A DNA stretch of 64,000 nucleotides, from NCBI GenBank assembly GCA_900696495.1, contig CAADGI010000021.1, forward strand, positions 43,614 through 107,613. The letters run 5' to 3'. Below, one piece after another: positions 41,164 to 63,056 of the stretch. The DNA comes from an uncultured Alphaproteobacteria bacterium. GTDB lineage: Bacteria > Pseudomonadota > Alphaproteobacteria > Micavibrionales > Micavibrionaceae. Below the pieces are notes generated by a model that saw nothing but the letters and a program-made list of their open reading frames with translations, ran no database searches and was not told the DNA's origin. Every line of letters begins with the position of its first letter. Within the stretch, counting starts at the first letter, position 1. Made by a program: the position numbers and the translations under genes.

Positions 41164-41233
41164 TTTTAGGTTCCTTCTCTAGCGAAGTAGTTGCTCACAT
41201 TAAAACAACGCCTACACTCACCGCCATCCGGCG

Positions 41234-42940: not shown

Positions 42941-43100
42941 ATATAGTATTTAACCACATTTTCAATGGTTCCGGCAAATTCAATCCGGCCGGCAAACCGG
43001 TCCACTTCCCTAATTCATTAATTTTGACGGATAAAAATTAAATAAAATTTAAGATAAAATTTTATCTTTTGAAATCAATGGCTTATATAGAAAACGGGAG

Positions 43101-44408: not shown

Positions 44409-44446
44409 GATCTGATCCTGCGATTTTTTTTGCTGTTAAATTAAAA

Positions 44447-45694
44447 CTAAATCTCAGCGGGTTTAATGACCGGCTCGAGAAACAATATCCCAACAGGGGT
44501 GCCCGCTTCAACACGAACCGTAACCTCGATTTCGTCAGCGGTTTCATCAAGAATTTCACGCAGTTTCTGGCCTGCTTCCTCGATACCGGAGGCGACTTCC
44601 TGCTCGGTGCTGGTGTCCTCGCTTTCCTCGGCTACGACGTCGCCCTCGACGGTGACGGTGGTCAGGCCCGACTCGCTGATCGCCGAGGCCAGGCCCTCGA
44701 CGAACGCCGCGGCCATCGGCAGCGCGACGCGCATCAGATAGTGGTGGTCGACGTCGGTGGCAAGGGCCGGAAGCGTGGTTTTCGGATCGACCGCCACGGC
44801 GTCGATATCGATGCTGACGCCGTCGACGATGACGGTCTGGAATTTAATCGTCAGCAGTTCTTTTTGCTTGGAGAAAGTGCCAAGCACGCGGCTGCCGGAC
44901 AGCGGCCCGGAGGCGATCTGCGCCAGCACGGGGCCGGGCACGTCGGAATTGGCTTCGGTCAAAATCTGCGCGTAGGCGATACGGCCGGCCGGGTAGAGAA
45001 CGATCTCGATATTTTCCTCGATTTGCTCGTCGTCGCCCGACGCTGCGGCCTCTTCTTCTTCCTGCTGCGAGCGCAGCTCGTTCAGCCAGTCGTCGCTCGT
45101 CATGCCGCGATATTGCAGCGGGCTGACGGTGGCGCGTTTTTCAAGAATGGATTGCATCTGCGTGGCCATGGCTTCGGCCAGCGCCTGGATCGCTTCGCTG
45201 CGCGCCGCATCGGCATCGGCATCGGGCGCAACCGTCTGCGAGCGCAGCATTTCACGCTGCAGGCGTTCTTCCTGGAGCTTGCGCCAGCGTTGCAGCGGGT
45301 CTTCTTCCGGCGCTTCGTTTTCCGTGACGGTCAGGCGCCCGACGGGCGGGTCGATCGGGGTGGGCAGCACGCTGCCGCTTTCCTTGATGGCCTGTTCGGT
45401 CCGCGCCTCGTTTTCTTCCTCGATGGCGGCGACGTATGAAGGGCTGGTTTCCTCGGTGCCGGGCGGGGCGGAAATGTCGGAGCCGCCGGAAACATAGGAC
45501 GGATCGATCGGCATGTCCTTGCCGCCGAAAAGAATGATGGTGGCGAAAATGGCGACAGCCGCCGCCACGACGACGCCGACCTTGACCATGGCGTTTTCCC
45601 GCCAGAGCTCGCCCAGCGTGCCTTTTTTCTTCTCAAAATCGTCGAAACTGGCTTCGTCGAGTTCGAGGCCGTCGTCATTTACATCATCGGCCAT
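44447..45694 (-). CDS. icmE: IcmE/DotG (VirB10/TrbI-like) core protein, short form
   Basis: N-terminal TM helix and a C-terminal VirB10-like domain (YAQILTEANSDVPGPVLAQIASGPLSGSRVLGTF...). 415 aa, without a long repeat region. Confidence 0.7.
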   Translation of the reverse strand: MADDVNDDGLELDEASFDDFEKKKGTLGELWRENAMVKVGVVVAAAVAIFATIILFGGKDMPIDPSYVSGGSDISAPPGTEETSPSYVAAIEEENEARTEQAIKESGSVLPTPIDPPVGRLTVTENEAPEEDPLQRWRKLQEERLQREMLRSQTVAPDADADAARSEAIQALAEAMATQMQSILEKRATVSPLQYRGMTSDDWLNELRSQQEEEEAAASGDDEQIEENIEIVLYPAGRIAYAQILTEANSDVPGPVLAQIASGPLSGSRVLGTFSKQKELLTIKFQTVIVDGVSIDIDAVAVDPKTTLPALATDVDHHYLMRVALPMAAAFVEGLASAISESGLTTVTVEGDVVAEESEDTSTEQEVASGIEEAGQKLREILDETADEIEVTVRVEAGTPVGILFLEPVIKPAEI

Positions 45695-46847
45695 GGATCA
45701 TATCTCCTATGACATCCTCGCGCTGCGAAACGCGTGCGCGGACCATCTTACCCTTATCGGACAGAAGCAGAACAGGGGCTTCCGAAATCGCATAAACGCG
45801 CATCCCGTCGGCGGATGCGACCGAAGCCGACCATGCGGGCGAAAGCAGCGTCAAGGGCGTGCGCACATAGGTCCCGCCCTTGAAGGCATAGGCCGTCGTG
45901 CGGCCATCGACGCCGGAAACATCGAGCTTTCTCGCGCCGGCGGGCGGCACGCCCTGCAGCACGGAAGCGATATCGGCATCGCCCGCGGCCGTGGTTATTC
46001 CCTTGTCGATCAGCGGCGCCTGCGCCATCGGGCCGTATTCCGGAATGATCGCGTCGAAGCGGTAGTGAACGGTTTCGCGGCTGGTTTGCAGCGAGATGAT
46101 GACCGGCGTTTTCAGCGTCAGAAGCCGGATCGACATGTTGCCGGTGGCGAATTCGGATTGCGGCGAAATGCGGATGATGTGCGAGCCCTGCGTCGACGAA
46201 GCCTCGACCACTTCGAAATTCCCGGCCCAGCTGATGTCCTGGATCGGCCACGGCGCGCCGGTCATGTCAAGGACGTTGAACGTCGAGACATGGCCGTAAG
46301 CGGTTTTTACCACAAGGGGCGTCGCGCCCGGATCGAGCGAAACGGTTTCGACGGTGACTTCGGGTTTTGGCGTGGCGTAAACCGGCAGCTCCACGGATTC
46401 CTGCGTGCGGTCGAAATGCTCGAGCAGCGTGCGGATTTCATCGGGACGGAGCGGCAAAACGCCCTGCAGGGCCGAGCTGAAAGCTTCTTTTCTCGCTTCT
46501 TCCTCAAGCTCGTCTTCGGATTTTTCGAACTGAAAATCCTCGCCGCCGTCGAGATTGGGCTCAGGCGCGAGAATGCCGTTCGCGCCGAAAAAATCGGGCG
46601 TTGCAGGCGCGGCGGGGCGCGGCGAGGAAGGCGGGGGCGTGGCCCCCGGCAAAAGAGGCGCCGCGCTTGGCGTCGGCGCCGCGTCGCCCGGCAATTCCTG
46701 CGGGGCTCCTAGCTGCGGCGGCGTAAATGCGGGAACGTCATTCTGCGCGTTTACAGGCGCAGACGATAAAGCGAGCAGCCCTATAAAAAGCGCGCCGGCG
46801 AGAATGGATTTTTCAAAAGAACGGTTACACATCGAGAGCTGCGGCAA
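45684..46847 (-). CDS. icmK: IcmK/DotH outer-membrane core protein
   Basis: Signal peptide (LLALSSAPVNAQ), 387 aa, position between icmL and icmE. Confidence 0.65.
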   Translation of the reverse strand: MPQLSMCNRSFEKSILAGALFIGLLALSSAPVNAQNDVPAFTPPQLGAPQELPGDAAPTPSAAPLLPGATPPPSSPRPAAPATPDFFGANGILAPEPNLDGGEDFQFEKSEDELEEEARKEAFSSALQGVLPLRPDEIRTLLEHFDRTQESVELPVYATPKPEVTVETVSLDPGATPLVVKTAYGHVSTFNVLDMTGAPWPIQDISWAGNFEVVEASSTQGSHIIRISPQSEFATGNMSIRLLTLKTPVIISLQTSRETVHYRFDAIIPEYGPMAQAPLIDKGITTAAGDADIASVLQGVPPAGARKLDVSGVDGRTTAYAFKGGTYVRTPLTLLSPAWSASVASADGMRVYAISEAPVLLLSDKGKMVRARVSQREDVIGDMIHGR

Positions 46848-46996
46848 AACGGTCAGGGTTGCAAATATAAAGGCCTGACAAGGATATATGCTTAAAAAAC
46901 CAGTGTCACCTGTGAATTGCTTCTAATTTACAAAAAAACACATAAATCATTTTCAAAAAACAGGCGGTTAAGTCTGAAAAGAAAAGTGCGGCGTGC

Positions 46997-47674
46997 TTAG
47001 CGCGGCACGGCGATCCACTGTTCGATGCCGACGCCGTTCGAGCTTTCAAGGCGCGGCACGCGGACGACGACGACCGTGACCAGCAGCGTGTCCGATTTCG
47101 TACGCGATCCCGATTGATAGGTCAGGACCAGCGGCAGCTGGATAATCCACTGGTAACGGCCCGCGACGACACCCTCGGATTCCAGGATCGGCGCGCCTGC
47201 CGGGGCGGCGGTGACGACCTGCTGGTTGGCCTCGACCATTTCTATAATACGGGATTTCTGGAGGGCCTGCGTGAAGCTTTCCCAGCCCCGGCGGGTGAAA
47301 TTTCGCGAGGATTCCTGCAATCTGCGGCGGTAATCGTTGAATCCGAAGGTCATGACCTCGGTCGAGGCCTGCGCCACCCAGGACATCAGGGCTGGGGTGC
47401 TCAAATTGGGTTCGTGCAGGGCGACCATGGGGATCAGGCGGCCGTCCTCGGTCGTGGCGAAATAACGGTCCTGCGGCTGGTGGACATGGATGACGAAATA
47501 CATCGCCCCCAGCAGGATCATGATGATCACGCCCTCGAGCAGGCATAGCCTGAGGAGATTGCGGTAGCCGTCCCGGTAGAATTCATTGCGGATAACGACC
47601 GTGCCAAGGCCGCTCGCGTCCTCGGTTGACTCGCCGGCGCCAGCCGTTGTTGATTTTACGTTCTTAAGGACCAT
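46997..47674 (-). CDS. icmL: IcmL/DotI inner-membrane protein
   Basis: 225 aa; RNEFYRDGYRNLL followed by a TM helix, then the periplasmic domain typical of IcmL/TraM. Confidence 0.75.
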   Translation of the reverse strand: MVLKNVKSTTAGAGESTEDASGLGTVVIRNEFYRDGYRNLLRLCLLEGVIIMILLGAMYFVIHVHQPQDRYFATTEDGRLIPMVALHEPNLSTPALMSWVAQASTEVMTFGFNDYRRRLQESSRNFTRRGWESFTQALQKSRIIEMVEANQQVVTAAPAGAPILESEGVVAGRYQWIIQLPLVLTYQSGSRTKSDTLLVTVVVVRVPRLESSNGVGIEQWIAVPR

Positions 47675-47915
47675 AAACTCTAAGGTAACACGCGTTGACG
47701 ATATTGCAAAAATCTGACGTTTTGCAGCTATTTATCTTGGCTTAAAATCCGCAGCTTCTCAAGCCGTGAAATGCACTGGGGCAAAATATCCTTAATTTTG
47801 GAGCGTGCACTCCCTGCCAAGGCTGTGATAAAATAGAAATAATTTGGGCAGGTTGGGGCGATTTCTCTGGAATCGCCTCGGGGGTCTTTGAGGTTTGGTC
47901 TTTAACCGGTTTGAG

Positions 47916-49271
47916 ATGTTAACGCAGGGCAGCTCCGCGACGCAGGTGAAGAGGAAGCGCTTTTCTTTCAGAAAAGCGCGCCGCTTTTCACTTATTTTTC
48001 TTTTCCTGATCTCCTTCGTCACGGCTTTTGTCGCACAGCCGCGCCCCGCGCAGGCGATCTGCGTCATATGTAACGCGGCCGACGTGGTGCTGGCGCAGAC
48101 CGCGATCCAGCTTTTCCACGAGACCTTTGAAATGCTGATGCTGCAATATATTTCCTCGGAATTCGTGCTGCACAGATTCTGGCTGACGCAAACATTCTTC
48201 ACCGCGGAAGTTTTGCCGGCGCTCATGATGTTCACCGAGCAGATGTCGGCGGTCGGCATGCACCAGGTTTTTATCTTCGGCACGTTCCTCGACGCGAAGC
48301 ATCAGCTTGAGACCCAGCGCCTGTTCCAGGAGCTGCAATTCGAGGCGCAAAGGGATTACCAGCCCAGCGAGGATTTCTGCTGGTTCGGCACCAACGTGCG
48401 CAGCATGGCCGCGACGGAAGCGCTGGGCCTGGCCAGCGCCGACTCGCTGAACGCGCTGCAGATGAAGCGCCATCTCGGCAACATCAATATGGGCGCTTCG
48501 GAATCGCGCGACCAGGACAAGGCCAACCGCTGGCAGCAATTCACGCGGCTTTACTGCGATGTCGACGACAACAACAGGCTGATGAACAAGCCCGGCACCG
48601 GTTTGCAGCTCGTCTGCCAGGGCGGTGAAAAACGCGTCAACAACGATATCGATTACACGCGCGTGATCGACGAGCCGCGTTCTTTCGAACTCTGGTTCGA
48701 TGACCCCACTATGACGGATGATGAAGAAGACATTATCGCCATGGGCAACAATCTGTACGGCCATGACGTCCTGACGCGCGAGGCGGACAACGAATATCTC
48801 AAGGAGCCGAAATACCAGCATCTCTATCTGGCGCTCCGCTCCGTCGCCGCAAAGCGTAACGTCGCGCAAAACTCCTTCAATGCGCTTGTCGCCCTGAAAG
48901 GCGGCGGCACCTGGGGAATGTGGCATGAGTCGAACACGCGCGAGTTCCTGGAGGCCGTTATGATGGAGCTTGGTTTCGGCGCGGGCGAAGCGAGAGCGTA
49001 TCTGGGGCCGGTGCCGAGCTACTATGCGCAGCTCGAGGTTCTCGCCAAAAAAATATATCAGAACCCCGATTTCTTCGCCGGGCTTTACGACTCGCCGGCC
49101 AACGTCGCGCGCAAAGGCGTCGCAATGAAAGCGATCGAGCTTATGCTCGACCGCGCGATTTATGAAAGCCAGGTCAGGCAGGAAATGCTGACATCCGTCC
49201 TGCTCTCGGCCAAGCTCCGCCCTGCGATCCGCCAGGTGAACAGAGACCTTGTAGGCTCAGGCAGCGAATAA
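47916..49271 (+). CDS. secreted Cys-containing protein, paralogue P1 of an unrecognised family
   Basis: Signal/anchor LIFLFLISFVTAFVAQPRPAQA, CxxC, and the conserved core ..MF.EQM.AV....IFGTFLDAKHQLETQ... Alternative starts are TTG at 47895 and GTG at 47946. Confidence 0.7.
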   Translation: MLTQGSSATQVKRKRFSFRKARRFSLIFLFLISFVTAFVAQPRPAQAICVICNAADVVLAQTAIQLFHETFEMLMLQYISSEFVLHRFWLTQTFFTAEVLPALMMFTEQMSAVGMHQVFIFGTFLDAKHQLETQRLFQELQFEAQRDYQPSEDFCWFGTNVRSMAATEALGLASADSLNALQMKRHLGNINMGASESRDQDKANRWQQFTRLYCDVDDNNRLMNKPGTGLQLVCQGGEKRVNNDIDYTRVIDEPRSFELWFDDPTMTDDEEDIIAMGNNLYGHDVLTREADNEYLKEPKYQHLYLALRSVAAKRNVAQNSFNALVALKGGGTWGMWHESNTREFLEAVMMELGFGAGEARAYLGPVPSYYAQLEVLAKKIYQNPDFFAGLYDSPANVARKGVAMKAIELMLDRAIYESQVRQEMLTSVLLSAKLRPAIRQVNRDLVGSGSE

Positions 49272-50638
49272 TGAAAAAAATTCGCAAGCCACGCTTCCTT
49301 CTCGTCGCCGGCTCGCTGCTTGTACTGGGTCTCCTTGCAGTCATTACATTGCCGCCGCGCCCGGCCAGCGCCGCGTTCAGTCCCTGCGAATTCTGCGTGG
49401 ATGGAGTCGTGGAGACCGAGCTCGAGCAATGGATCACCGACTATATAGGCGGCACGTACTGGCGCATGTCGCGCCATATACGCAGCGAAATGGTCGCGCA
49501 GAAGGTCTGGATGGTTTCGGTTTTCTGGGAAGACAATCTCCTGCCGGCCCTGATGCTGATGGCCAACCAGCTGACGGCGGTCGCCACGCAGCAGATGCAG
49601 ATCGTCGGCGCGTTCATGGATGCCAAGCAACAGCTCGAAACGCAGCAGACGCTCCAGAGAATAGCCGCGCGCACGCACAAGGATTATCATACGACCGTGG
49701 GGCTTTGCGAAATCGCCTCGAGTCTGAAATCCCTGGCCGGGTCGGACCGCAACACGGAAATGCACGCCCTGATGCTTTCCCAGCGTTCGCAGGACCGCCT
49801 GCTGGGCGCGGTCAACACCGCGGCGTCGCTGGGCGAGCATGGCGACAAGGGAAACCGCCTCAAGCAGTACCGCGAAAAATTCTGCGACCCCCGCGACAAC
49901 AATAACGGTCTGAATTTTCTGTGCGACTGGGACCAGGACGGCATTCCGGGTCCTGTTGTCGGCGGCGGCGATCCCATGCGTTTTAACAAGGACATCGATT
50001 TTCGCCGGACGGTCGACACGCCCTGGACGCTGGCGCAGTTCGATATGATTTACCCGATCGGCCGCGTAAACCTGTCGGACAGCGAGGAAGAGATTTTCGC
50101 GCTGGCAAGCAATCTGTACGGCAACGAAGTCTTTCTCCGCCCGCCCAACGTCGAGCTGCGGTCTCTTCCGACCGAGCGCATCACGAACATGCAGAAGGTT
50201 TACCTCGATATGCGGGCGGTCGCCGCCAAGCTGGCGGTCGCCGAAAATTCCTTCAACGAGATCGTGGGGCAGAAAGCGGAAGGCCTGACCGGCGCGTTCC
50301 CGTATCTGCGGGAAATGCTGGTGGAGCTGGGCCTGGGCCCGGGCGAGGCGACGGAGCTGCTCGGCAGCGAGGCGCCGAGCTATAACGCCGCGATGGAAAT
50401 TCTGACGAAGAAGGTTTATCAGAACCCGGATTTCTACACGAACCTTTATGACACGCCGGCCAACGTCGCCCGTAAAAAAGTCGCGATGCAGGCGATCGGC
50501 CTGATGCAGAAATTCGACCTGTTCAAAAGCCATTTGCGCGCCGAGGCATCGCTTTCGGTGATTCTGGAACTGGCGGTTGTCGATCTTCAGAATGAAATAG
50601 AAAACGAGATCAACCAGGCGGTCGGCGAGGGCGATTAG
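49271..50638 (+). CDS. secreted Cys-containing protein, paralogue P2
   Basis: 455 aa; signal peptide ending ASA; roughly three quarters identical to P3 by eye; TAATG overlap with P1. Confidence 0.75.
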   Translation: MKKIRKPRFLLVAGSLLVLGLLAVITLPPRPASAAFSPCEFCVDGVVETELEQWITDYIGGTYWRMSRHIRSEMVAQKVWMVSVFWEDNLLPALMLMANQLTAVATQQMQIVGAFMDAKQQLETQQTLQRIAARTHKDYHTTVGLCEIASSLKSLAGSDRNTEMHALMLSQRSQDRLLGAVNTAASLGEHGDKGNRLKQYREKFCDPRDNNNGLNFLCDWDQDGIPGPVVGGGDPMRFNKDIDFRRTVDTPWTLAQFDMIYPIGRVNLSDSEEEIFALASNLYGNEVFLRPPNVELRSLPTERITNMQKVYLDMRAVAAKLAVAENSFNEIVGQKAEGLTGAFPYLREMLVELGLGPGEATELLGSEAPSYNAAMEILTKKVYQNPDFYTNLYDTPANVARKKVAMQAIGLMQKFDLFKSHLRAEASLSVILELAVVDLQNEIENEINQAVGEGD

Positions 50639-50664
50639 GCGGCCGGGGATTTTTTGAAAGTTAT

Positions 50665-52011
50665 ATGAGAAAATTGTTTAGAAAAAGAAACTTGATCCTT
50701 CCGGTGTTCGTAATGGTCCTGGCCATTACGGTCATCATGCCGCGCCCGGCGAACGCGCTTTGCGAATTCTGCGTGAAGGGCGTGGTGGAGAGCGAGCTTC
50801 AGCAATGGGCTACCGACATCCAGGGCGGCACCTACTGGCGGCTCACGCGTTTCGTGCGCAGCGAAATGACGGCGCAGAAAATCTGGCTGGTTTCGATTTT
50901 GTGGGAGGACAACCTCCTGCCCGCGATGATGCTGATGGCCGACCAGTTGACCGCCGTGGCGATGCAGCAGATGCAGATTATCGGCACGTTCATGGATGCC
51001 AAGCATCAGCTCGAGACGCAGCAGGTGCTCCAGAAGATCGCTGCCCGCACGCACAAGGATTATCATCCGAGCATCGGGCTTTGCGACTTCGGCACCGCCG
51101 CCAAAAGCCTGGCCATGTCCGAGCGCAAGGCGGATTTGACCTCCGTTCTTTTTGCGCAGCGCTCGCAGGACCGTCAACTGGGCGCCGTCAACACGGCGTC
51201 GGCTCTCGGCGAGGACAGCGACAAGGAAAGCCGTATCAGGCAGTTCCGCGAAAAATTCTGCCAGCGCCATGATAACAATGACGGGCTCAATATACTTTGC
51301 GACTGGGACCAGGACGGCGTTCCGGGCCCCATGATCGGCGGCCAGGAACCCGAGCGCCTTAACAAAGATATTGATTTCGTGCGCGTGGTCGACAAGCCGT
51401 GGACGATAAAGATAGATATGCTCTACCCGTCGCTGCGCGAAGTGCTGACCGACGAAGAGGAAGAGATTTTCGCGCTGGCAGGCAATCTCTACGCTCACCA
51501 GCTCTTCATCCGCCCGCCCGCGCGCGCGCTGCAGTCTCTTCCTGGCGAACGCATTACGAACATGCAGAAGATTTACCTGGATATGCGCTCGGTTATCGCC
51601 AAACGCTCCGTCGCGGAAAATTCATTCAATGCGATCGTAGGGTTGAAGGCCGAAGGCTCAGGCGGCTCGACCGATTATCTCATCGCGATGCTGCAGGAGC
51701 TTGGCGTCAGCTACGACGTGGCGACATCCATGCTTCGCACGATCTTGCCCAGCTATTACGCCCAGATGGAAGTGATGACCAAGAAAATTTATCAGAAGCC
51801 TGATTTTTACACGAATCTTTATGACACGCCGGCCAACGTCGACCGCAAAGAGGTCGCGATGCAGGCGATCGGCCTGATGCAGAAATTCGACATCTTCAAA
51901 TCCTATCTGCGCAACGAGGCATCGCTTTCGGTGCTGCTCGAGATGGAAGTTGTCCAGCTTCAGAACGAAATTGAAAACGAACTGAACCAGATGGTAGGCG
52001 AAGGGGATTAG
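50665..52011 (+). CDS. secreted Cys-containing protein, paralogue P3
   Basis: 448 aa; collinear with P2; the 3' end and intergenic junction are duplicated at P3/P4. Confidence 0.75.
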   Translation: MRKLFRKRNLILPVFVMVLAITVIMPRPANALCEFCVKGVVESELQQWATDIQGGTYWRLTRFVRSEMTAQKIWLVSILWEDNLLPAMMLMADQLTAVAMQQMQIIGTFMDAKHQLETQQVLQKIAARTHKDYHPSIGLCDFGTAAKSLAMSERKADLTSVLFAQRSQDRQLGAVNTASALGEDSDKESRIRQFREKFCQRHDNNDGLNILCDWDQDGVPGPMIGGQEPERLNKDIDFVRVVDKPWTIKIDMLYPSLREVLTDEEEEIFALAGNLYAHQLFIRPPARALQSLPGERITNMQKIYLDMRSVIAKRSVAENSFNAIVGLKAEGSGGSTDYLIAMLQELGVSYDVATSMLRTILPSYYAQMEVMTKKIYQKPDFYTNLYDTPANVDRKEVAMQAIGLMQKFDIFKSYLRNEASLSVLLEMEVVQLQNEIENELNQMVGEGD

Positions 52012-52045
52012 GCGGAAGGCCGGAAATTTTTGATTTGGAAACTGT

Positions 52046-53881
52046 ATGAGAAAGTTTTTTAGAAAAAGAAATCTTGTTATTGCGGGCCTGGCCCTGGCGG
52101 GCTTGACCGCGGGGCTGCTGGTTGCGGGCGCTGTAACGGGAAAATCCTGGCAGCCGCTGGCGTCCTTAAGCGGCAAAAGCAAGACGCTGGCCCTGATGGG
52201 CACGCTCGAAGGCTTCGAGCCGGGCGCGAAGGTCAGCTACAGCATCATGCCCGACGAGGGCCGCCCCGCGCACGGCGAGGCCAAGGTCGACGCGGCGGGC
52301 AAACTGGATATCCCGGCCTATAACCTTTTCAACGCGGCCGGACGCAATCTTTCCTACGCGATCGAGGTCAATGAAAAAGAAAAGCCGTTGAACCTTGCGT
52401 TCACGTTCGATGCCAAGGAAGGCAAGATCGCGGTGCAGGGCAGGGGGCTGGATCCTTCCGCCGAGATCAGTCTGGGCGGCGAAAAGACGCGCACCGACTG
52501 GGCCGGCCTCATTCGCGAGAATATCGCGGGCGATCTCAATCAGCTCGGCCGGGAGGAGGGGTTCAAGGTCGCGATGCTGGGCAACGTCGCCAGTGACGCC
52601 GACAACCGCGCGCGCGACAAAATTATCAAGGTTCTCGCCGCGCCCGGCGGCGGTTTGTATGAGGACCCGCTGCTGAATGTCTATGTTTTCCCCTATGGCT
52701 GCAACGACGGGCAGGGCGGCGCGGTGATGTACAGCTTCTGCATTCCCGGCAGCATGATGACGCCGCTGATCGTTCACAACTATGTGAAGGCGCTCATGCT
52801 GATGACCGAGCAGCTCACGGCGGTGATGGCTTCCATGATGCTGCATGTCGGGGCGATGATCGACGCGAAGTTCCAGCTCGAGACCCAGCGCGAAATGCAG
52901 CGGCTGGTCGCGCAGGCGCACAAGGATTATCACCCGAGCGAGATGATGTGCGAATACGGCTCTTTCATGAGAAGCATTTACTCGTCCGAAGAAAAATCCA
53001 TGACCGAGAAAATGACGATGAGCTCGCTTCTCACACAGTTCTATGTCGGGACGGCGCATAACAGCAGCTCGGAAAGTTTTACAAGCGACTTTAATTCCCG
53101 CGGGCAGCAGTTCCGCACGGTGTATTGCGATACCAACGACAATAACAACGGCCTGAATTTCATGTGCGATCACGACCAGGTCTTCAATGCCGGCGCTGCG
53201 GGCAGCACAAACCCCGGAGATATAAACAAGGATATCGATTTCCGCCGCACCATAGACCAGAAATTGACGGTCAATATCGATTTCACCAGCACGCATACCG
53301 GCGGCGTTCCGGTGCGCCCCCCCGAACCGGATGAGCCGGAAGTCCTTGCGCTGGCCAAAAATCTTTACTGGCCGCGGCCTCTGCCGCCGGGCGTGCCCGA
53401 AACCATCAATGATGACTTTTTCAAATATATAAACGCGCGCCATATCTATGCCGCGATGAACGTGGCGCACAACAGCTATGTCACCATCGCCGGCATGAAA
53501 AGCAAGTCGCACCCCACCATGGGCCCCCGCTCCGGCTGGGCCTACATGCAGGCGATGATGCGCAATTTCGGCATGGACGAACAGACGATCTATGGATGGA
53601 TGGACCAGCACCCGAGCTATTACGCGCAGATGGAAATCCTGACCAAAAAAATCTACCAGCACCCGGATTTTTACACGAACCTCTACGACAAGCCCGCCAA
53701 CGTGAAACGTATCGGCGTGACGCTGGAAGCCATCAAGCTGATGCAGCAGCAGGATTTCTATGATTCCATGCTCCGGCGTGAAATGATGACCTCGCTCCTG
53801 CTGGAAGAAGCCCTCCAGCCCGAGGTGCAGCGCCTCAACGCGGCCGTGGTCCAGGACGCCCGCAACCTCCAGCGCCGTTAA
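52046..53881 (+). CDS. secreted Cys-containing protein, paralogue P4, with an extra ~190-aa N-terminal domain
   Basis: 611 aa. The C-terminal ~420 aa are collinear with P1-P3 (LMTEQLTAVMASMMLHVGAMIDAKFQLETQ, NKDIDFRRTID, PSYYAQMEILTKKIYQHPDFYTNLYD). Confidence 0.75.
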   Translation: MRKFFRKRNLVIAGLALAGLTAGLLVAGAVTGKSWQPLASLSGKSKTLALMGTLEGFEPGAKVSYSIMPDEGRPAHGEAKVDAAGKLDIPAYNLFNAAGRNLSYAIEVNEKEKPLNLAFTFDAKEGKIAVQGRGLDPSAEISLGGEKTRTDWAGLIRENIAGDLNQLGREEGFKVAMLGNVASDADNRARDKIIKVLAAPGGGLYEDPLLNVYVFPYGCNDGQGGAVMYSFCIPGSMMTPLIVHNYVKALMLMTEQLTAVMASMMLHVGAMIDAKFQLETQREMQRLVAQAHKDYHPSEMMCEYGSFMRSIYSSEEKSMTEKMTMSSLLTQFYVGTAHNSSSESFTSDFNSRGQQFRTVYCDTNDNNNGLNFMCDHDQVFNAGAAGSTNPGDINKDIDFRRTIDQKLTVNIDFTSTHTGGVPVRPPEPDEPEVLALAKNLYWPRPLPPGVPETINDDFFKYINARHIYAAMNVAHNSYVTIAGMKSKSHPTMGPRSGWAYMQAMMRNFGMDEQTIYGWMDQHPSYYAQMEILTKKIYQHPDFYTNLYDKPANVKRIGVTLEAIKLMQQQDFYDSMLRREMMTSLLLEEALQPEVQRLNAAVVQDARNLQRR

Positions 53882-53992
53882 ACCCCTCCGGGGCCTGAAA
53901 ACTGGCATTTTCCTTGCAAGATAATCCACAGGACTGAATTCGGCGCCAATTCTGGCAAATATTGCCCCTGGCGCCCCTGATAGGGATTGAAA

Positions 53993-56389
53993 ATGTCGCT
54001 CACGGCTTTGAATGCCGCCCTGACGGGCCTGCGGATCGCGCAGCAGCAGATCGGAGTGATCTCGAACAACGTGGCTAACGTCGGCACCCCCGGCTTTACC
54101 CGGAAAATTTTGCCGCAACAGGCCCAGGTCATTAATGGCGCGGGGGTAGGGGTCCTGGCCGACAAAATTATACGTAACGTGGACCTGAACCTCTCCCGCG
54201 ATCTCTGGACCCAGATCAGCAACACCTCGCTTCTCGACGTCAAGGAATCCTATCTCGGCCGCATCCAGCAGTTCCACGGCCCGCCGGACAAGGAATTGTC
54301 GATCGCCGCCGAACTGGCCCGTTTGCATGACAGTTTCTCGGCGCTGGCCGACAGTCCCGAGGACCGTTTCCTGCAATCCGCCACGGTCAACCAGGCCGTC
54401 GACACCGCCAACAAGATCAACGGCCTGTCGCGCCTGATCACGACGCTGCGTAATGACGCGCAGGGTCAGATCGAGGGCACGGTCGCGCGCGTCAATGATT
54501 TGCTCGGGCAGATCGCCGAACTGAACGTCGATATTTCGAACAGCACCGGCGTCGGCCGCAGCACCGCCGCGCTCGAGGACAAGCGCGACGACGCCATCAA
54601 GGAACTGTCCGGGATGATGGACCTGACCTGCTTCACGCGCGGCGACGGCGCGATCGTCGTCCAGACCAGCCAGGGCGTCGAACTGGCCTCGACCCGCGCG
54701 ACATTGCTGACCTTCCGCGCCACGCCGCAATCGGCATCGACTTATTATCCTGCATCGGCCGCGGGCGTTTATGTCGGTAATCCGCTCACCGATCCGGGCG
54801 CGGTCGACATCACGGAAGACGCGCCGGGCGGCAAGCTGGGCGGGCTGCTCGAACTTCGCGATGAAATCTTTCCGAAGCAGATGGCGCAGCTCGACGAACT
54901 CGCGCACAAGATGGCGCTGCGCTTCGAAGCGCAGGGTTTGCGCCTGTTCACCGACGGCTCCGGCAATATCCCGCCCGATACCGCGCCCAATTCGAGCGTC
55001 CCGACGCCGGTGGGTTATGTCGGTTTTTCCAGTGTCATCCAGGTCAATGAAAACATTCTCGCCGACAACACGATCCTGCAGAGCGGCACATACGGCGCCT
55101 CGATCGCCACGGGCTCGAACGAAATCATTCGCCGCGTGCTGCAATTCTCGTTCGGCGACGTCGATTTCCAGCAGGCGGTCGGCGCCATCGACATGCGGGT
55201 TTCCGCCAACGCCGCGCCCAACGACACGTTGCAGGAATTTTTAGGCATCCGTTCTGAAAACGAAGTCAGGGGCACGCGGAACCTCAGCAGCTTCCTGGCG
55301 CCCGCCGATTTTATCACTGCCGCCAACGGCGCTCTCGATCCCGGCAGCGACACGTTCAGGATGACATTCGAAGAGGCTTCCCTCGGCCTCGGCCCGGTCA
55401 ATATCGACGTGTCGCTCAGCGCGATTCCCAACACCGGCGGCAACTTCGTGCAGGACCTGATTGCCTATATCAACGGCACGGTCATCCCGGCGCTCGGCGC
55501 GGGCGACCAGGCGGATCTGACGGCGATGGGCGTGACGTTTGCCCAGGGCGCCAATGGCCAGTTCACGGTTGAATCGACCGGCGATATCACGTTCGACGCC
55601 GGCCTTGCGAACGGCATGGGCGCGGCCGGCCTTGCGCTGCTTGGCTTTGCCGAAGATACGTTCGAGGCGACGGATCCGTATTTCGACGTTCAGGTCGGCA
55701 ACAACCCGCCGGTGCGTATCACGATTGCGCCTGACGACGACGAGGTCGATTTGCAGGCGAAACTGCTCGCCGTGCCCGGCCTTGCGATGGAAGACCTTGT
55801 TACTTCTACGGACGGATTCCTGCGCCTGCGTCCCGGCAACGATTACAACAACCCGGATTTCGGCGGCGACATCAGGATCATATCCGGCCCGTTCACGGCG
55901 AACGGCGCGGGCGCCAACGCGGTGTTCGGCGCGGGTACGATCCAGAACGGCGTCAATATCGTCTCGGCGCTGTTCGGCAGTTTCTCGGCAAGCCCGCTGC
56001 AGGATCTCTCGCCGGTCGGTAATGTTTCCTACGGCTCGGAAACGGACGCATCGCTCGCGCCGCCGCTCCCGACGATTGCATTCCGCAACCAGTATCTCGG
56101 CCCCGGCGCGAATATTTCTGCGAATATCGTCGGCTCGAGCGCGCTGATCGATTACGCGCAGAAAATCGTCAACGAGCAGACGCAGGAAACAATTCTTGTC
56201 CAGGCGCGCAAAGTCGACGAGGAAACCCTGAAAGAAACATTGCAGCGCCAGTTGCTCGACCAGTCTGGCGTCAATATCGACGAGGAACTTGGCACGCTGA
56301 TTCAGGTGCAGACGGCCTATGCGGCGTCGGCGCGCGTGATCACGGCTGTAAACCAGTTGTTTGACGAGCTGCTGAACGCAATTCGCTAA
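53993..56389 (+). CDS. flgK: flagellar hook-associated protein 1 (FlgK)
   Basis: N-terminus MSLTALNAALTGLRIAQQQIGVISNNVANVGTPGFTRK and C-terminus DEELGTLIQVQTAYAASARVITAVNQLFDELL are canonical FlgK termini. Confidence 0.85.
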   Translation: MSLTALNAALTGLRIAQQQIGVISNNVANVGTPGFTRKILPQQAQVINGAGVGVLADKIIRNVDLNLSRDLWTQISNTSLLDVKESYLGRIQQFHGPPDKELSIAAELARLHDSFSALADSPEDRFLQSATVNQAVDTANKINGLSRLITTLRNDAQGQIEGTVARVNDLLGQIAELNVDISNSTGVGRSTAALEDKRDDAIKELSGMMDLTCFTRGDGAIVVQTSQGVELASTRATLLTFRATPQSASTYYPASAAGVYVGNPLTDPGAVDITEDAPGGKLGGLLELRDEIFPKQMAQLDELAHKMALRFEAQGLRLFTDGSGNIPPDTAPNSSVPTPVGYVGFSSVIQVNENILADNTILQSGTYGASIATGSNEIIRRVLQFSFGDVDFQQAVGAIDMRVSANAAPNDTLQEFLGIRSENEVRGTRNLSSFLAPADFITAANGALDPGSDTFRMTFEEASLGLGPVNIDVSLSAIPNTGGNFVQDLIAYINGTVIPALGAGDQADLTAMGVTFAQGANGQFTVESTGDITFDAGLANGMGAAGLALLGFAEDTFEATDPYFDVQVGNNPPVRITIAPDDDEVDLQAKLLAVPGLAMEDLVTSTDGFLRLRPGNDYNNPDFGGDIRIISGPFTANGAGANAVFGAGTIQNGVNIVSALFGSFSASPLQDLSPVGNVSYGSETDASLAPPLPTIAFRNQYLGPGANISANIVGSSALIDYAQKIVNEQTQETILVQARKVDEETLKETLQRQLLDQSGVNIDEELGTLIQVQTAYAASARVITAVNQLFDELLNAIR

Positions 56390-56413
56390 AGGAATAACGA
56401 AAGGACCTAGATT

Positions 56414-57619
56414 ATGACCGGCATTTCAACTTTGGGACAGGCTTTGGACCAGATCGAGCGCATCAAGGAGCAGCAATCGCTCTTCTCGACGCTTTCGACA
56501 CAACTGACGACCGGCAAGAAAACGCAGACTTTCACGGGTCTTGGCACCGATGTCATGCTCTCGAAGCGCGCGCGCACGGAATTCAATTCGTTCAATCAAT
56601 ATATCAAGAACATCACCAACAGCGACCGCCGGATAAAATTGATGCTGACCGCGATCGAGGAATTCAAGGCGCAGGCCGAGAATTTCGCCGACGTGCTTGT
56701 GAATTTCTCGCAGGAAAGCGAACACCAGAAAGGCGACATCATTTATTACGACGATCCGCTGACGACGGAAATTGAAAACATCCCGGTCGGCATGACATCG
56801 TCCGAGCCCGGCGTTGATTTCTCGACTGTGCGCGAATTCGCGGCCAGCGTGCTGAGCTTCCTGAAGGATCTCGTGAACGCGAAGGAAAACGACCGTTACC
56901 TGCTCGGCGGCGCCGACACGCTGACCAAGCCGCTGGGCGACACCGGCACGCTGGATTCCGCGCTCAGCGTTTTGATCACGTCATGGAAGACGGGAACGAT
57001 TTCGACCGACGACCTGCTGGCCGATTTGCGCGACCGCACGGCGACCGGCGGCAACCCGAACGCCCTCACCGATACGGTCGTGGGTTATTCCGCCGCGCTC
57101 AGCGCCGGGACGGTGGGCAAGGTTTTCGTGCGCGTCGATGACGTTTCCGAGATCGATTTTACGGTGCTCGGCAACGACAAGGCCTTCCGCGACATCATCG
57201 TGGCGGCGAGCGCGATCATGAATGCCGAACTGCCGCCGATGATCGATACATACGGGCCGCCGAATACTTACCCCGGTGTGCCGGACGCGCAGGGCGCTCC
57301 CGGCGATACCGTCCAGGAAATGAAGGATAATTTCTTCAAGATGTTCAACAGCCTGACCGCCATGGTCAACAACGCGATCGACGACATCGACAAGCTGCGC
57401 TTCAAGCTCGAGGGCGTGCGCGCCCGCATCGACGACGTGAAGAAAAGCCATGTCGAACAGAAAAACCTGCTGCTCAATACGATCGGCGATGTCGAGGATG
57501 TCGATATCAACGAGGTTGCCGTGCGCATCCAGCAGTTGCAGATCCAGCTCGACGCGTCATTCCGCGTCACCGCCAAGATGCAGGACCTGACGCTGGCGAA
57601 TTTCCTTCTGATTGGATAA
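56414..57619 (+). CDS. flgL: flagellar hook-associated protein 3 (FlgL), alphaproteobacterial type
   Basis: N-terminal helical segment with QLTTGKK...GLG, and a flagellin-like C-terminal helix (VAVRIQQLQIQLDASFRVTAKMQDLTLANFL). Follows flgK. Confidence 0.7.
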   Translation: MTGISTLGQALDQIERIKEQQSLFSTLSTQLTTGKKTQTFTGLGTDVMLSKRARTEFNSFNQYIKNITNSDRRIKLMLTAIEEFKAQAENFADVLVNFSQESEHQKGDIIYYDDPLTTEIENIPVGMTSSEPGVDFSTVREFAASVLSFLKDLVNAKENDRYLLGGADTLTKPLGDTGTLDSALSVLITSWKTGTISTDDLLADLRDRTATGGNPNALTDTVVGYSAALSAGTVGKVFVRVDDVSEIDFTVLGNDKAFRDIIVAASAIMNAELPPMIDTYGPPNTYPGVPDAQGAPGDTVQEMKDNFFKMFNSLTAMVNNAIDDIDKLRFKLEGVRARIDDVKKSHVEQKNLLLNTIGDVEDVDINEVAVRIQQLQIQLDASFRVTAKMQDLTLANFLLIG

Positions 57620-57627: not shown

Positions 57628-59229
57628 TTAAGCGCGCTTGTCGCGGATCAGGATGCCGCCGGGCTCATGCGCGCCGGGCTTTTGCATGACCTGCAGTTCG
57701 GGCGTGGCGCTGGGTTCGGCCTCAAGGCCCGTGGCAATCACGGATTCGACCGCGCCGGTGAAATCATCTTTCAGCGCGACGTCTTCCTTGATCTTGTAAT
57801 CATACGACGCCATCCAGACCAGCTCGATGCCGGCTTTCTCGCTCCAGCGCGTGAGAATGTCGCGGAGGCTTTCGCCTGCCTTTGCTTCCCAGGGTTCCGA
57901 AGGTGTTTTTCCCGCTGCGGGGGCTTCGGCCAGAAGCGGCAGCGCGGGTTTTTCCGCCGTATTCTGAACATCCTGCTGCGCTTCCGGCGCTTGATCCGGG
58001 GTTTTGGTGTTCAGCTGCTCGGGCGTCGGCAATGTTTCGGTTTCAGCGGGCTCTGCTTTAGAGGCGGCGTGGTCTTTCGCGGGTGAAATTTTTTCAGGGC
58101 CGCCCGACGCGGTAGCGATGTCGGATAATTCATTGGCGGCTTGTTGCTGTAAGCTTTCACCCGGATCATTGATGTTCGCGCGGCGCAGGCCGTCACGCGC
58201 TGCCGCCGGCTTTGTCTCAACAAGCGCAGCATCGCCCTGGCGCCAGCCGCCCGGCGAGCGGACATGAACTGTTTTATTGACGATAACAGCCTGGAGCTGC
58301 AGCGGCGCCAGCATGTCGTTGATCACCTGGTCCCACGGCTTGCCGCCATCCCATGAAACCGTCTGGCCGACATTGACGCCGGACTCGAAGGAGGTCGCGT
58401 AATCCGAAGGGACGATCTGCTGCAGCGCCAGCGCGAGGGGCATGTCGCTGCCGAAGCCTTCAAGCACGGGCTTGTCGGACGGTTGTTGCGCCGCTGCGGA
58501 GGCGACGACGGAATCGAAGCCCAGGGCAGGAGCCGGTACGGCATCGCCATACGGGCGCGGATTGATGACCAGCTTCTGGCTGTTGGGCGTATTGTCGAGA
58601 GCGGCCTGCGGCGCGTCCTCGGGCATGAAAACCCGCGGCTGTTGCGCAACAACGGGCGGCGCCATCTCGGCAGGTTCGTAAGCGGGACGTTCAAAGGCAG
58701 GCGGCGGCGCGATTTGCTGCGTCGTCACAGGCTCCGGCAGAACAGGGCGCGAGTCCGTAATCGAGAGAGGCGCGTTTCCGGCAGCGGGGGGCGGGCTGAC
58801 TTCACGGACTTTCATCGCGGTGTTTTCCTCGGGCGGCAGCAGCGGCTGGGCCTGGTAACCGGACGGCGCATCCAGCAATGTGTTGACTGGCACATCGTTG
58901 TTGGCGGCGGTTGCATCAAAAGGTCTGAGCTGCGGCGTCACGGGAATAGGCGAGACGGGAGCGGGCGCGGTTTCTGCGCCCGGGAGGGGCAGCACGGCAT
59001 CGGACGGTCCTGCCGGGGGAATGCCGGGCGCAACAGTCACGTTCGGCGCGGCAGGCGTTACTTCGGGCGCGGCGGCGGGCTGGGTCGGGGGAACCCATTC
59101 AAATCCGGCATGCGTGACAGTCGCTCCCAGGGTTATTGCGGCGCCAAAAGCAGCCAGCAAAATAAAGGATTTTCCACCCAGGTTTGTGTTGATACGCATA
59201 CGGCCTCTCATGAATCGGTGTGAAATCAA
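57628..59229 (-). CDS. secreted proline-rich protein with two C-terminal TcpQ/PilL-like beta domains
   Basis: Signal peptide (LLAAFGAAITLGATVTHA) and a long Pro/Ala linker. Motifs QTVSWDGGKPWDQVINDML and WEAKAGESLRDILTRWSEKAGIELVW...DFTGAVESVI. Start uncertain. Confidence 0.55.
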   Translation of the reverse strand: MISHRFMRGRMRINTNLGGKSFILLAAFGAAITLGATVTHAGFEWVPPTQPAAAPEVTPAAPNVTVAPGIPPAGPSDAVLPLPGAETAPAPVSPIPVTPQLRPFDATAANNDVPVNTLLDAPSGYQAQPLLPPEENTAMKVREVSPPPAAGNAPLSITDSRPVLPEPVTTQQIAPPPAFERPAYEPAEMAPPVVAQQPRVFMPEDAPQAALDNTPNSQKLVINPRPYGDAVPAPALGFDSVVASAAAQQPSDKPVLEGFGSDMPLALALQQIVPSDYATSFESGVNVGQTVSWDGGKPWDQVINDMLAPLQLQAVIVNKTVHVRSPGGWRQGDAALVETKPAAARDGLRRANINDPGESLQQQAANELSDIATASGGPEKISPAKDHAASKAEPAETETLPTPEQLNTKTPDQAPEAQQDVQNTAEKPALPLLAEAPAAGKTPSEPWEAKAGESLRDILTRWSEKAGIELVWMASYDYKIKEDVALKDDFTGAVESVIATGLEAEPSATPELQVMQKPGAHEPGGILIRDKRA

Positions 59230-59308
59230 GAGTTGACCATAATGCCCCGCCAGTCAAAAAACAAGCGGGAGGGCCCGAAAAAGCCCAAAAAATAAGGAGA
59301 AAGAGGGC

Positions 59309-59611
59309 CTAGCCGTAATCCGTAAATTTCTTGTGCTGGACGCCGATCCAGCCGGGCCGGTTGCTGCCCACGACCCAGGAACGGAAGTTGCGGATGGCCG
59401 CCGGGAAGGTCAGGCCCTTGCGCTCGAGGAAACGGAAAAACAGCAGCGAGGTAATGAGCAGTAAAAGCGTGGAAAGGCGCGCGTAAACCAGCAATAGCGG
59501 CAAGGGCAGCGCGGCGCGCGCGTCGAAAGCCAGGAATCGCACGGTGCGCATGGAATTGCGCCAGTGCCAGTTCATCTTTTCCTGAAGATTCTCAATCTGC
59601 TGTGCAGCCAT
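59309..59611 (-). CDS. icmT: IcmT/TraK-like small membrane protein
   Basis: 100 aa; HWRNSMRTVRFLAFDARAALPLPLLL followed by a hydrophobic helix and FLERKGLT, as remembered for IcmT. Confidence 0.7.
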   Translation of the reverse strand: MAAQQIENLQEKMNWHWRNSMRTVRFLAFDARAALPLPLLLVYARLSTLLLLITSLLFFRFLERKGLTFPAAIRNFRSWVVGSNRPGWIGVQHKKFTDYG

Positions 59612-59667
59612 GACACGTCCCCGCCGTTTATATGACTATCTTACCAGATTTTTATGCGGAAAGGGAA

Positions 59668-61895: not shown

Positions 61896-61918
61896 TTAAA
61901 AACCCAAAATCAGAAAAA

Positions 61919-62428: not shown

Positions 62429-62580
62429 TAACCTATTACCTTACAAAAAAACAAACGTCTTCACTCTAAGTCCGGAAGCAGGGCTTATAATTTAAGCTTA
62501 ACGGTTCATATATGCATCCGCAAGATGCGTTTCCAATCTGTCCCGCGTCAAAAAGGCTGTTTCAGGGCGATTTTGGAAGG

Positions 62581-63003: not shown

Positions 63004-63056
63004 AGCGAATTTACTCCATTAACCGGGGTCTATTTTAAGGGGAAATTTCGATTCCG

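Follow-up and report, generated by a model that had tools for sequence, protein, structure and literature searches.

Organization of the locus

The window (the whole 64-kb stretch of DNA that was analysed) contains six genes on the plus strand, encoding the paralogous proteins P1 to P4 followed by FlgK and FlgL. These genes are located between two minus-strand arms of a Dot/Icm-type (type IVB) secretion system (T4BSS), dotI-dotH-dotG...dotO on the one side and dotD-dotC-dotB-icmT on the other (Table 1). The Pfam and NCBIfam assignments of the flanking genes confirmed this placement, which had been proposed in the original prediction, and recovered the T4BSS core set of dotC, dotD, dotH, dotG, dotI, dotB, dotO, icmT and icmJ. 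Similarity to TraU, TraN, TraJ and TraI was detected among the T4BSS genes of the window as well, and the gene order of the right arm is also found in related loci. Genes for the coupling protein DotL and the channel protein DotA/TraY were not found in the 64-kb window or up to 10 kb beyond the ends of the locus in the relatives, and may be located elsewhere in the genome.

The six genes are tightly packed, and the ORF calls reproduced the predicted positions and spacing: a TAATG overlap, followed by gaps of 26, 34, 111 and 24 bp, where the 111-bp gap between P4 and flgK is measured up to the ATG at 53993. For P1 three start codons are available (TTG 47895, ATG 47916 and GTG 47946). Since the alignments with homologues begin around residue 18-22 of P1, the GTG is favoured and is probably the true start.

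Table 1. Position of the genes and promoters in the window, ordered along the sequence
Feature	Position	Strand	Evidence
T4BSS left arm, whole	36818..47674	-	Pfam; NCBIfam; tblastn with R64 TraU/TraN
dotO/icmB	36818-39826	-	left arm
icmJ/dotN	39967-40677	-	left arm
127-aa protein	40780-41163	-	left arm
568-aa repeat membrane protein	41234-42940	-	left arm
dotF-like	43101-44408	-	left arm
dotG/icmE	44447-45694	-	left arm
dotH/icmK	45684-46847	-	left arm
dotI/icmL	46997-47674	-	left arm
Candidate sigma-70-type promoter of the P genes, TGTGATAAAAT	47822..47843	+	consensus scan; weak evidence
P1, first IcmX/TraW-like paralogue ('P1 type')	47895..49271	+	ORF; alignment
P2, IcmX/TraW-like paralogue	49271..50638	+	ORF; alignment
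P3, IcmX/TraW-like paralogue, the modelled copy	50665..52011	+	ORF; AF2; Foldseek; hhalign
P4, last paralogue ('P4 type')	52046..53881	+	ORF; alignment
Sigma-54 (RpoN) type promoter, TGGCATTTTCCTTGCA	53903..53918	+	sequence motif
flgK, hook-associated protein 1	53993..56389 (alternative start 53987)	+	TIGR02492; Pfam FlgK_D1, Flg_bb_rod, Flg_bbr_C
flgL-like, hook-associated protein 3 / flagellin family	56414..57619	+	Flagellin_C; position after flgK
T4BSS right arm, whole	57628..63977	-	Pfam; NCBIfam; order as in related loci
TcpQ-domain protein	57628-59229	-	right arm
icmT	59309-59611	-	right arm
dotB	59668-60828	-	right arm
dotC	60807-61895	-	right arm
dotD	61919-62428	-	right arm
SLT transglycosylase	62581-63003	-	right arm
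Conserved 306-aa protein	63057-63977	-	right arm

Sequence features of the paralogues

The four P proteins align over their full length, with 35-40% identity to P1, and the sequence motifs that had been recognized in them are conserved across the whole family. P1, P2 and P3 each begin with basic residues, continue into a hydrophobic segment and carry a PRPAxA site. In P1 the Sec-type signal peptide is followed by CVIC. In P3 it is followed by CEFC; a long helix then leads into a loop-rich middle that contains Cys residues, and the protein ends in further helices. A CxxC directly behind the signal or anchor had been predicted for each of the four proteins, which holds for P1 to P3 but not for P4, where a C-x12-C pair is found after an insert of ~190 aa. 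This extra N-terminal domain of P4, which the ORF and the alignment bear out, is located between an N-terminal anchor or signal and the IcmX-like core. We regard the P proteins as Sec-exported and probably disulfide-bonded. Long N-terminal extensions are carried by many members of the family, and in one relative a GDSL lipase domain is found at the N-terminus.

The predicted duplication of the stop-to-start junctions was confirmed for P2/P3 as well as P3/P4. P2 and P3 represent lineage-specific duplicates, but with an amino-acid identity of 65% the duplication was not very recent, and neither was the suggested crossing-over.

Distribution and synteny in Micavibrio-like genomes

The relatives of the locus were surveyed in ~80 Micavibrio-like genomes, in which the P block comprises 2-6 copies. 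The block adjoins dotI in 71 of the 72 evaluable loci, and in 64 of 76 a co-oriented flgK comes directly after it. In at least four species (L039, L068, L079 and L082) the block is found between dotI and the TcpQ gene without flgKL. In one genome (L021) three P genes, flgK and flgL form a cluster that has no dot gene in the 10 kb around it, and dotD-dotC-dotB, the TcpQ gene and icmT are present on another contig. The order P-flgK-flgL within the T4BSS locus is kept down to relatives with ~40% identity to P3 of the window.

The paralogue types also occur in a fixed order: among 70 complete blocks the first copy is of the P1 type in 63 and the last copy of the P4 type in 64, and the full P1-P2-P3-P4 pattern was limited, among the blocks compared, to the clade of the window itself. 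The core of the proteins is strongly conserved over ~80 species. Judged by the best 78 of the 303 genomic matches, the family is confined to the Micavibrio-like alphaproteobacteria. It is large, with ~1,270 clusters at 50% identity, and every member that bears a source name is annotated as hypothetical.

Probable kinship of the paralogues with IcmX and TraW

No Pfam or NCBIfam family was matched by P1 to P4. In the high-confidence AF2 model of P3, built from 125 sequences (pLDDT 88.5, pTM 0.73), the signal peptide is succeeded by a helix of ~78 residues, and a middle part rich in loops separates this helix from the long helices of the C-terminus. The same helix/loop/helix layout has been described for IcmX (bioRxiv 10.1101/2025.06.23.660953). 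In a Foldseek search of the PDB the model matched 9ngy_AP1, a chain of the DotA-IcmX protochannel (E 2.6e-3, probability 1.00, 306 columns), which was taken to be IcmX by its length (417 residues) and the title of the entry, not by molecule name. It was the sole significant match and the only one below an E-value of 1 (runner-up 1.2), and it had likewise ranked first with an earlier, poorer P model. The TM-score is low (0.32-0.34, with an rmsd of 11 Å), and the likeness is therefore one of architecture rather than of tight superposition.

An hhalign comparison of the P family with an IcmX-like/TraW alignment gave a moderate probability of 59% (E 9.2e-5) over 248 colinear columns, in which C140, C199 and C212 of the P family pair with C131, C185 and C195 of the IcmX-like/TraW proteins. 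An independent profile run scored 35.9 (E 8.9e-4), a value reached by none of 79 column shuffles. The colinear match and the aligned Cys triad suggest common descent with the IcmX-like/TraW proteins. The P family matched neither the NCBIfam conj_TraW model nor profiles of R64-type TraW alone, and an HMM search of the PDB sequences, IcmX included, detected no sequence similarity; accepted members of the IcmX-like/TraW group likewise fail to reach the Legionella IcmX by HMM. Besides P1 to P4, no TraW or IcmX candidate was found in the 64-kb window.

The P proteins and IcmX of Legionella pneumophila (PDB 9ngy) share the signal peptide, a similar size (~450 versus 466 aa), a loop-rich middle domain that is placed between a long N-terminal helix and the helices of the C-terminus, and the location of their genes within a Dot/Icm-type locus. 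In the Micavibrio-like genomes, however, a tandem set of 2-6 paralogues, one of which bears an additional N-terminal domain, takes the place of a single icmX, and the genes adjoin dotI, whereas the Legionella gene adjoins icmW/dotA; no dotA was seen near the P genes. [quoted passage not shown] With TraW of R64 (IncI) and the IcmX1/IcmX2-like proteins of T4BSS plasmids of Yersinia (pVM82), Pseudomonas and Xanthomonas, the family shares a similar C-terminal helix and the Cys triad, in which a single Cys behind the region of the N-terminal helix precedes a (F/Y)C-x9-13-C pair, and P1 to P3 have the Sec signal peptide and the mature size (~380-470 aa) of the IcmX/TraW class. It differs from these proteins in the extra CxxC right behind the signal peptide and in family-specific motifs that are strongly conserved (PSYYAQME..KKIYQNPDFY). 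The tandem icmX1 and icmX2 genes of pVM82 provide a two-copy precedent for the duplication. According to the paper on the IcmX structure, the helices at both termini of IcmX have counterparts in VirB5, which is seated on VirB6 and at the tip of the pilus. By analogy the P proteins would belong to the same functional class as this type IVA protein. VirB5 is, however, a far smaller protein in which the large middle domain is missing.

Alternatively, the paralogues could be secreted predation factors or effectors, such as pore-forming or membrane-active helical proteins, encoded beside the T4BSS without being structural parts of it, with a likeness to IcmX that is convergent or too weak to be meaningful. 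The low TM-score, the ClyA-type pore formers among the non-significant Foldseek matches, the variable copy number (2-6), the widely variable N-terminal extensions and the lipase domain of the one relative would all be compatible with such a role. We nevertheless consider it rather unlikely. The kept order of the paralogue types and the conserved core would be expected of a machine part rather than of a toxin under diversification, the colinear match with its Cys triad suggests common descent, and the Sec signal peptide directs the proteins to the periplasm, the site where IcmX acts.

Identity and regulation of flgK-flgL

FlgK was identified by its models (TIGR02492, 280 bits against a cut-off of 171; Flg_bb_rod, FlgK_D1 and Flg_bbr_C above cut-off). 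For FlgL, predicted to be equally canonical, the equivalog models for flgL and flagellin stayed below cut-off (46-82 bits against 127-230) and Flagellin_N fell just short, but Flagellin_C was matched (34 bits, cut-off 23) and the position directly after flgK is conserved in the related loci. As predicted, the scanned ORFs of the window included no other flagellar gene.

A sigma-54 motif (TGGCAY-N5-TTGCA) was identified upstream of flgK in all 65 related loci, at a distance of 52-132 nt, where 0.007 matches per 220 nt are expected by chance; in the window the distance between TGGCATTTTCCTTGCA and the ATG of flgK, which lies downstream of it, is 75 nt. Over all loci 67 of the 98 matches are upstream of flgK, and the first paralogue is preceded by the motif in one locus only. 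The divergent spacer between dotI and P1 of the window contains no match to a sigma-54 or sigma-28 motif. It does contain TGTGATAAAAT, which resembles an extended -10 element and recurs as a word in ~10 related dotI-P1 spacers. Since no convincing terminator was found between P4 and flgK, read-through from P4 into flgK is still possible.

The hook-class flagellar genes of Caulobacter have sigma-54 promoters. The flgK-flgL unit resembles such alphaproteobacterial operons in its GG-N10-GC promoter with canonical spacing; it differs from them in its location inside a secretion locus. In the flagellated M. aeruginosavorus ARL-13, which contains rpoN, a single flgK is annotated, distant from the main flagellar clusters. 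With its conserved promoter and this only annotated flgK, flgKL behaves as a flagellar unit. The original prediction had left the choice between a stray flagellar fragment trapped in the T4BSS locus and paralogues that form a new accessory module of one of the two machines. A flagellar unit appears indeed to be lodged in the locus and the paralogues probably go with the secretion system, but the unit is not stray, because its position is conserved over the whole Micavibrio-like clade.

The P proteins could also constitute a flagellar accessory module, periplasmic or secreted, that acts with the hook-filament junction and is co-inherited and co-expressed with flgKL, the secretion genes being mere neighbours. 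The frequent co-oriented flgK behind the block, the P-P-P-flgK-flgL cluster of L021 and the lack of a strong terminator after P4 would be in line with this, but we regard it as very unlikely: the sigma-54 promoter belongs to flgK and hardly ever to P1, at least four species have the block in the T4BSS locus without flgKL, and L021 does retain T4BSS genes on another contig. Flagellar axial proteins are exported without Sec signal peptides, whereas the P proteins bear them. Moreover, the structural matches to hook-junction proteins were non-significant (E ~5) and vanished with the better model, which left IcmX as the only significant one. Finally, recruitment of FlgK and FlgL by the secretion system, as an extracellular appendage of axial proteins and paralogues, would fit the far-reaching conservation of the P-flgK-flgL order but is hardly credible, given the flagellar type of the flgK promoter, the single annotated flgK of the flagellated ARL-13, the species that lack flgKL and keep the remainder of the locus, the normal rod-family N- and C-terminal domains of FlgK, as needed for flagellar type III export, and the absence of a flagellar export gate gene nearby.

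Proposed role

We thus favour, with a probability of roughly 70%, the reading in which P1 to P4 represent very divergent, multi-copy versions of IcmX/TraW, the protein at the tip of the central channel of Dot/Icm-type machines, and flgKL a separately regulated flagellar unit within the locus. The first part had been offered as a guess (an amplified periplasmic component) and is supported by the Foldseek match, the remote profile match and the adjacency to dotI. A single IcmX-like gene would have multiplied into an ordered array, with the P1 type first, then the P2/P3 type and the P4 type last, transcribed divergently from dotI, apparently via a sigma-70-type promoter. The chromosomal type IVB system may thus carry a periplasmic or distal cap that is assembled from all the paralogues together. 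The flgK-flgL genes would form a separate transcription unit under their own sigma-54 promoter and encode the hook-filament junction of the polar flagellum; their place in the secretion locus would be inherited synteny, which does not argue for a shared machine.

A more specific possibility, which we put forward tentatively, is that the three to five distinct paralogues of the ordered array assemble into a hetero-oligomer, perhaps a hetero-pentamer, which caps a T4BSS that an obligate bacterial predator uses against its prey. In the last paralogue the variable N-terminal domain would then be the tip that contacts or recognizes the prey, and the placement of flgKL directly behind the array might help to time the expression of both to the motile attack phase.

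Significance

The flagellar side of these results is unremarkable. That IcmX and DotA jointly make up the gated channel at the centre of the Legionella machine was shown only in 2025, and the members of the P family appear to be IcmX relatives that were missed by the standard models. All the Micavibrio-like genomes sampled contained ordered multi-copy arrays of such genes. For M. aeruginosavorus, the genome paper of 2011 had reported no type IV system. The present results show that the Micavibrio-like obligate bacterial predators constantly possess a Dot/Icm-type system, which makes a role of type IVB secretion in the predation of bacteria on bacteria directly testable.

The plus-strand block between the two secretion arms

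An ORF call placed the six plus-strand genes exactly where the original prediction had them, wedged between two minus-strand arms of a Dot/Icm-type (type IVB) secretion system (T4BSS) and with the same spacing: a TAATG overlap, followed by gaps of 26, 34, 111 (to the ATG at 53993) and 24 bp. The P1 reading frame indeed opens at 47895, but its start codon is probably the GTG at 47946. The four paralogues P1 to P4 belong to one family (the P family), as they align end to end with 35-40% identity to P1; P2 and P3 share 65% identity. The junction between P2 and P3 is repeated between P3 and P4, and the duplicated stretch takes in the spacer as well as the opening codons of the gene behind it. The duplication that gave rise to P2 and P3 thus stands, but not the suggestion that it was recent, and the CxxC proposed directly behind the N-terminal hydrophobic segment is absent from P4. 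Whereas the first of the two downstream genes encodes a canonical FlgK (280 bits against an equivalog cut-off of 171), the supposedly canonical FlgL has flagellin-family ends and remains below the flgL cut-offs.

Coordinates of features in the window and in related loci
Feature	Sequence	Position	Strand	Content
Housekeeping genes	window	first 35 kb		holA, parAB, gidA, mnmE, rho, hemH/hemE, secB, tim44, mltA
Origin-type cluster	window	1446-14725		holA, parB, parA, gidA/mnmG, mnmE, rho
DUF6782 ORFs	window	18933-21291	+	two neighbouring ORFs, putative metallopeptidase
Left T4BSS arm	window	from 36.8 kb	-	dotO, icmJ/dotN, two membrane proteins, dotF-like, dotG, dotH, dotI
Sigma-54-like word	window	40993	-	TGGTATTCTGCTTGCC
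568-aa membrane protein	window	41234-42940	-	between dotF-like and 127-aa genes
Paralogues P1-P4	window	47895-53881	+	followed by flgK, flgL
TcpQ-domain protein	window	57628-59229	-	constant member of right arm
Right T4BSS arm	window	after the + strand block	-	TcpQ-domain gene, icmT, dotB, dotC, dotD, SLT transglycosylase, conserved unknown
652-aa gene	L001	19315-21273		between dotB and icmT, opposite strand
652-aa gene	L092	14404-16362		between dotB and icmT, opposite strand
Thioredoxin-fold gene	L091	8996-9865		Thioredoxin_2/4
Thioredoxin-fold gene	L092	9053-9904		Thioredoxin_2/4
Complete locus of HCB189	NZ_CP195303.1 (L085)	2008182-2029270		dotO...dotI / P / flgKL / TcpQ-icmT-dotB-dotC-dotD

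Relation of the paralogues to IcmX and TraW

P1-P4 had no match in Pfam or NCBIfam, nor did the P-family profiles when PDB sequences were searched with them by HMM. A first AF2 model of P3, built from 39 sequences, was poor (pLDDT 68.6), with chain 9ngy_AP1 already as the top Foldseek match (E 0.26). A second model, based on 125 diverse sequences, reached a pLDDT of 88.5 and a pTM of 0.73, and 9ngy_AP1 was its sole match in the PDB below E 1 (E 2.6e-3, probability 1.00, 306 columns, at a TM-score of only 0.32-0.34); the next match had an E-value of 1.2. Entry 9ngy is the Legionella DotA-IcmX protochannel, and we take chain AP1 to be IcmX from the entry title and from its length, as 417 residues fit IcmX (466 aa with signal peptide) and not DotA. 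IcmX has been described as a larger relative of VirB5, in which an extended domain lies between N- and C-terminal helices (bioRxiv 10.1101/2025.06.23.660953). For P3 the AF2 model predicts a signal peptide followed by a helix of about 78 residues, then a middle part rich in loops and containing cysteines, and finally long C-terminal helices, a layout that matches this arrangement.

Remote sequence similarity points in the same direction. Two tandem hypothetical genes lie beside the type IV pilus cluster on the 153-kb plasmid of Yersinia pseudotuberculosis; their position and size mark them as the icmX1 and icmX2 that were identified with MacSyFinder in a 2024 preprint. The IcmX-like family to which they belong shows clear homology to TraW (hhalign probability 97%, E 1.5e-11). 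Against the combined IcmX-like and TraW profile the P family scored 35.9 (E 8.9e-4), a value reached by none of 79 column-shuffled controls (maximum 30.7). Alignment of the curated profiles gave a probability of 59% (E 9.2e-5) over 248 colinear columns, in which the three invariant P-family cysteines C140, C199 and C212 coincide with C131, C185 and C195 of the Yersinia protein. The signal was obtained only with this broader profile: R64 TraW alone, or six plasmid TraW sequences, gave nothing beyond spurious short matches (probability at most 2%), and a motif resemblance to TraW seen by eye was dropped for that reason. The accepted IcmX-like/TraW profile itself did not find any PDB chain, which places Legionella IcmX out of HMM reach even for its recognised relatives; the absence of a direct match between the P family and IcmX is therefore not evidence against homology. 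No icmX is annotated in the T4BSS of the Vibrio megaplasmid.

The guess of an IcmX/TraW-like component is thus supported by fold, colinear remote similarity, size, export signal and gene context, and membership of P1-P4 in the IcmX/TraW class is the best reading, with a probability of roughly 0.7.

Distribution and gene context of the P family

The P family comprises 1,668 matches in 90% clusters; an exhaustive profile search returned 1,267 representative clusters, 807 of them below 1e-30. All matches with a source name are annotated as hypothetical, and many members carry long N-terminal extensions. Among ten such relatives searched against Pfam, a domain was found in P0170 (920 aa), where an N-terminal GDSL-like lipase domain (38 bits, cut-off 32.9) is fused to an IcmX-like core; the other nine had none. 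The window stems from an alphaproteobacterium of the Micavibrio type, and the best P3 homologues (83-88% identical) stem from Micavibrio and Alphaproteobacteria MAGs. A tblastn search with P3 against 72,556 plasmids gave no match.

When a single genome of each species was scanned, 303 stretches with a P-family match were found, and the window proteins were mapped by tblastn onto the best 78 of these. All 78 are Micavibrio-like, though a few come from bins that evidently bear a wrong label. One lies in the complete genome of M. aeruginosavorus HCB189, which has the whole locus with only two P copies. The blocks contain two to six copies (three in 25 loci, four in 14, five in 29). The first copy was of the P1 type in 63 and the last of the P4 type in 64 of the 70 complete blocks. 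On the left the block borders dotI in 71 of the 72 evaluable loci, and on the right flgK in 64 of 76. In four loci (L039, L068, L079 and L082) the block directly adjoins the TcpQ gene, without flgKL, and in L050 an inverted dotE-like...dotO arm comes after it. Locus L021 has P-P-P-flgK-flgL beside secB, tim44 and mltA with no dot genes nearby. It was considered as a case of P genes working without a T4BSS, and rejected: dotD-dotC-dotB, TcpQ and icmT lie on another contig of that genome, which indicates that the system is retained but scattered.

The P proteins may instead be secreted toxins or effectors, in view of the low TM-score and of the variable copy number and N-termini. We consider this less likely, since the strongly conserved core and the fixed order of the paralogues look like those of a machine part.

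Promoters and the flgK-flgL unit

The P4-flgK spacer contains TGGCATTTTCCTTGCA, a putative sigma-54 promoter with canonical GG-N10-GC spacing. Each of the 65 related loci has the motif TGGCAY-N5-TTGCA at 52-132 nt upstream of flgK, against a background of 0.007 per 220 nt. Of 98 sigma-54 motif matches over all loci, 67 lie upstream of flgK and a single one upstream of P1. In the dotI-P1 spacer no sigma-54 or sigma-28 match was found; it has an AT-rich stretch with the word TGTGATAAAAT, which resembles an extended -10. The P4-flgK spacer has no convincing terminator, and read-through from P4 into flgK is therefore possible. A looser sigma-54-like word within the coding strand of the 127-aa T4BSS gene occurs at the same position in six related loci, which may reflect conservation of the coding sequence and not a promoter.

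M. aeruginosavorus ARL-13 is motile by one polar flagellum and has rpoN. Its single listed FlgK (GMV2433) is encoded far from the main flagellar clusters (GMV0749-0775 and GMV1696-1727). Together with the promoter this identifies flgKL as a predicted flagellar hook-class unit, with its own putative promoter, that became established here in the clade's common ancestor and has disappeared from this site in several lineages. That the P proteins are instead flagellar accessory proteins, as their position before flgK might suggest, is improbable: the sigma-54 motif accompanies flgK and not P1, four species have the block without flgKL, the P proteins carry Sec signals and their structural match is IcmX. 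Co-option of FlgK and FlgL by the secretion system is unlikely, given the flagellar type of the promoter and the single flgK listed for a flagellated species.

Other genes of the locus

In Legionella the operon order is icmL-K-E-G-C-D-J-B, and the left arm of the window has the same gene order. Its 568-aa membrane protein combines a signal peptide with four internal repeats, all of them hydrophobic modules of two helices (...AYLLALLF..G.LKLKEHV.NPQQ..L......L.GGAL...P..Y...). Both this protein and the adjacent 127-aa protein match DUF6750 weakly. Since the 568-aa protein occupies the place of icmC/dotE and icmD/dotP in Legionella, it looks like a fused and multiplied version of these small proteins.

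TcpQ-family genes adjoin dotB or type IVb pilus genes on Vibrio and Yersinia T4BSS plasmids (L093, L097), whereas the TcpQ gene of the window lacks accompanying pilus genes. L001 and L092, the closest relatives of the window, have an extra 652-aa gene without a Pfam family, which is missing from the window itself. DotA/TraY, TraW and DotL were not found in the 64 kb. A search for dotA or icmX past the locus ends in relatives met only housekeeping genes, which there follow a thioredoxin-fold gene. This gene adjoins a conserved 306-aa unknown; in L091 and L092 its position corresponds to just past the right end of the window. R64 (TrbB) and the Vibrio megaplasmid similarly have thioredoxin-fold genes near their T4BSS, and the gene may encode a disulfide oxidoreductase for cysteine-rich periplasmic parts.

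The gene set holA, parB, parA, gidA, mnmE and rho usually lies near the chromosomal replication origin, which would put the T4BSS locus less than about 40 kb from the likely origin region. The two DUF6782 ORFs seem to be a further tandem duplication. Their listed coordinates share about 350 bp, and one of the two starts has therefore probably been misplaced.

Implications for the Micavibrio-like T4BSS

The P proteins have export signals, conserved cysteines and an IcmX-like fold, and their genes form ordered paralogue types, tightly linked to dotI and with promoters separate from that of flgKL. An oxidation step for the cysteines would fit the thioredoxin-fold gene bordering the locus in relatives. 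Each distinct paralogue would have a place of its own, with the long N-terminal domain of the final copy pointing outward.

Automated screening had already found a Type I (Dot/Icm-like) T4SS in seven marine MAGs of the Micavibrionales (PMC9418006). The 2011 genome paper on ARL-13 stated that there is no type IV system; the HCB189 locus contradicts that statement for M. aeruginosavorus. In the literature searched we found no description of the P family or of the P-flgKL arrangement. The tandem icmX1/icmX2 of Yersinia provide a precedent for duplication, with two copies. The ordered arrays of three to six copies with a long-N-terminus variant, of a family missed by standard models, are a new form of a known component.
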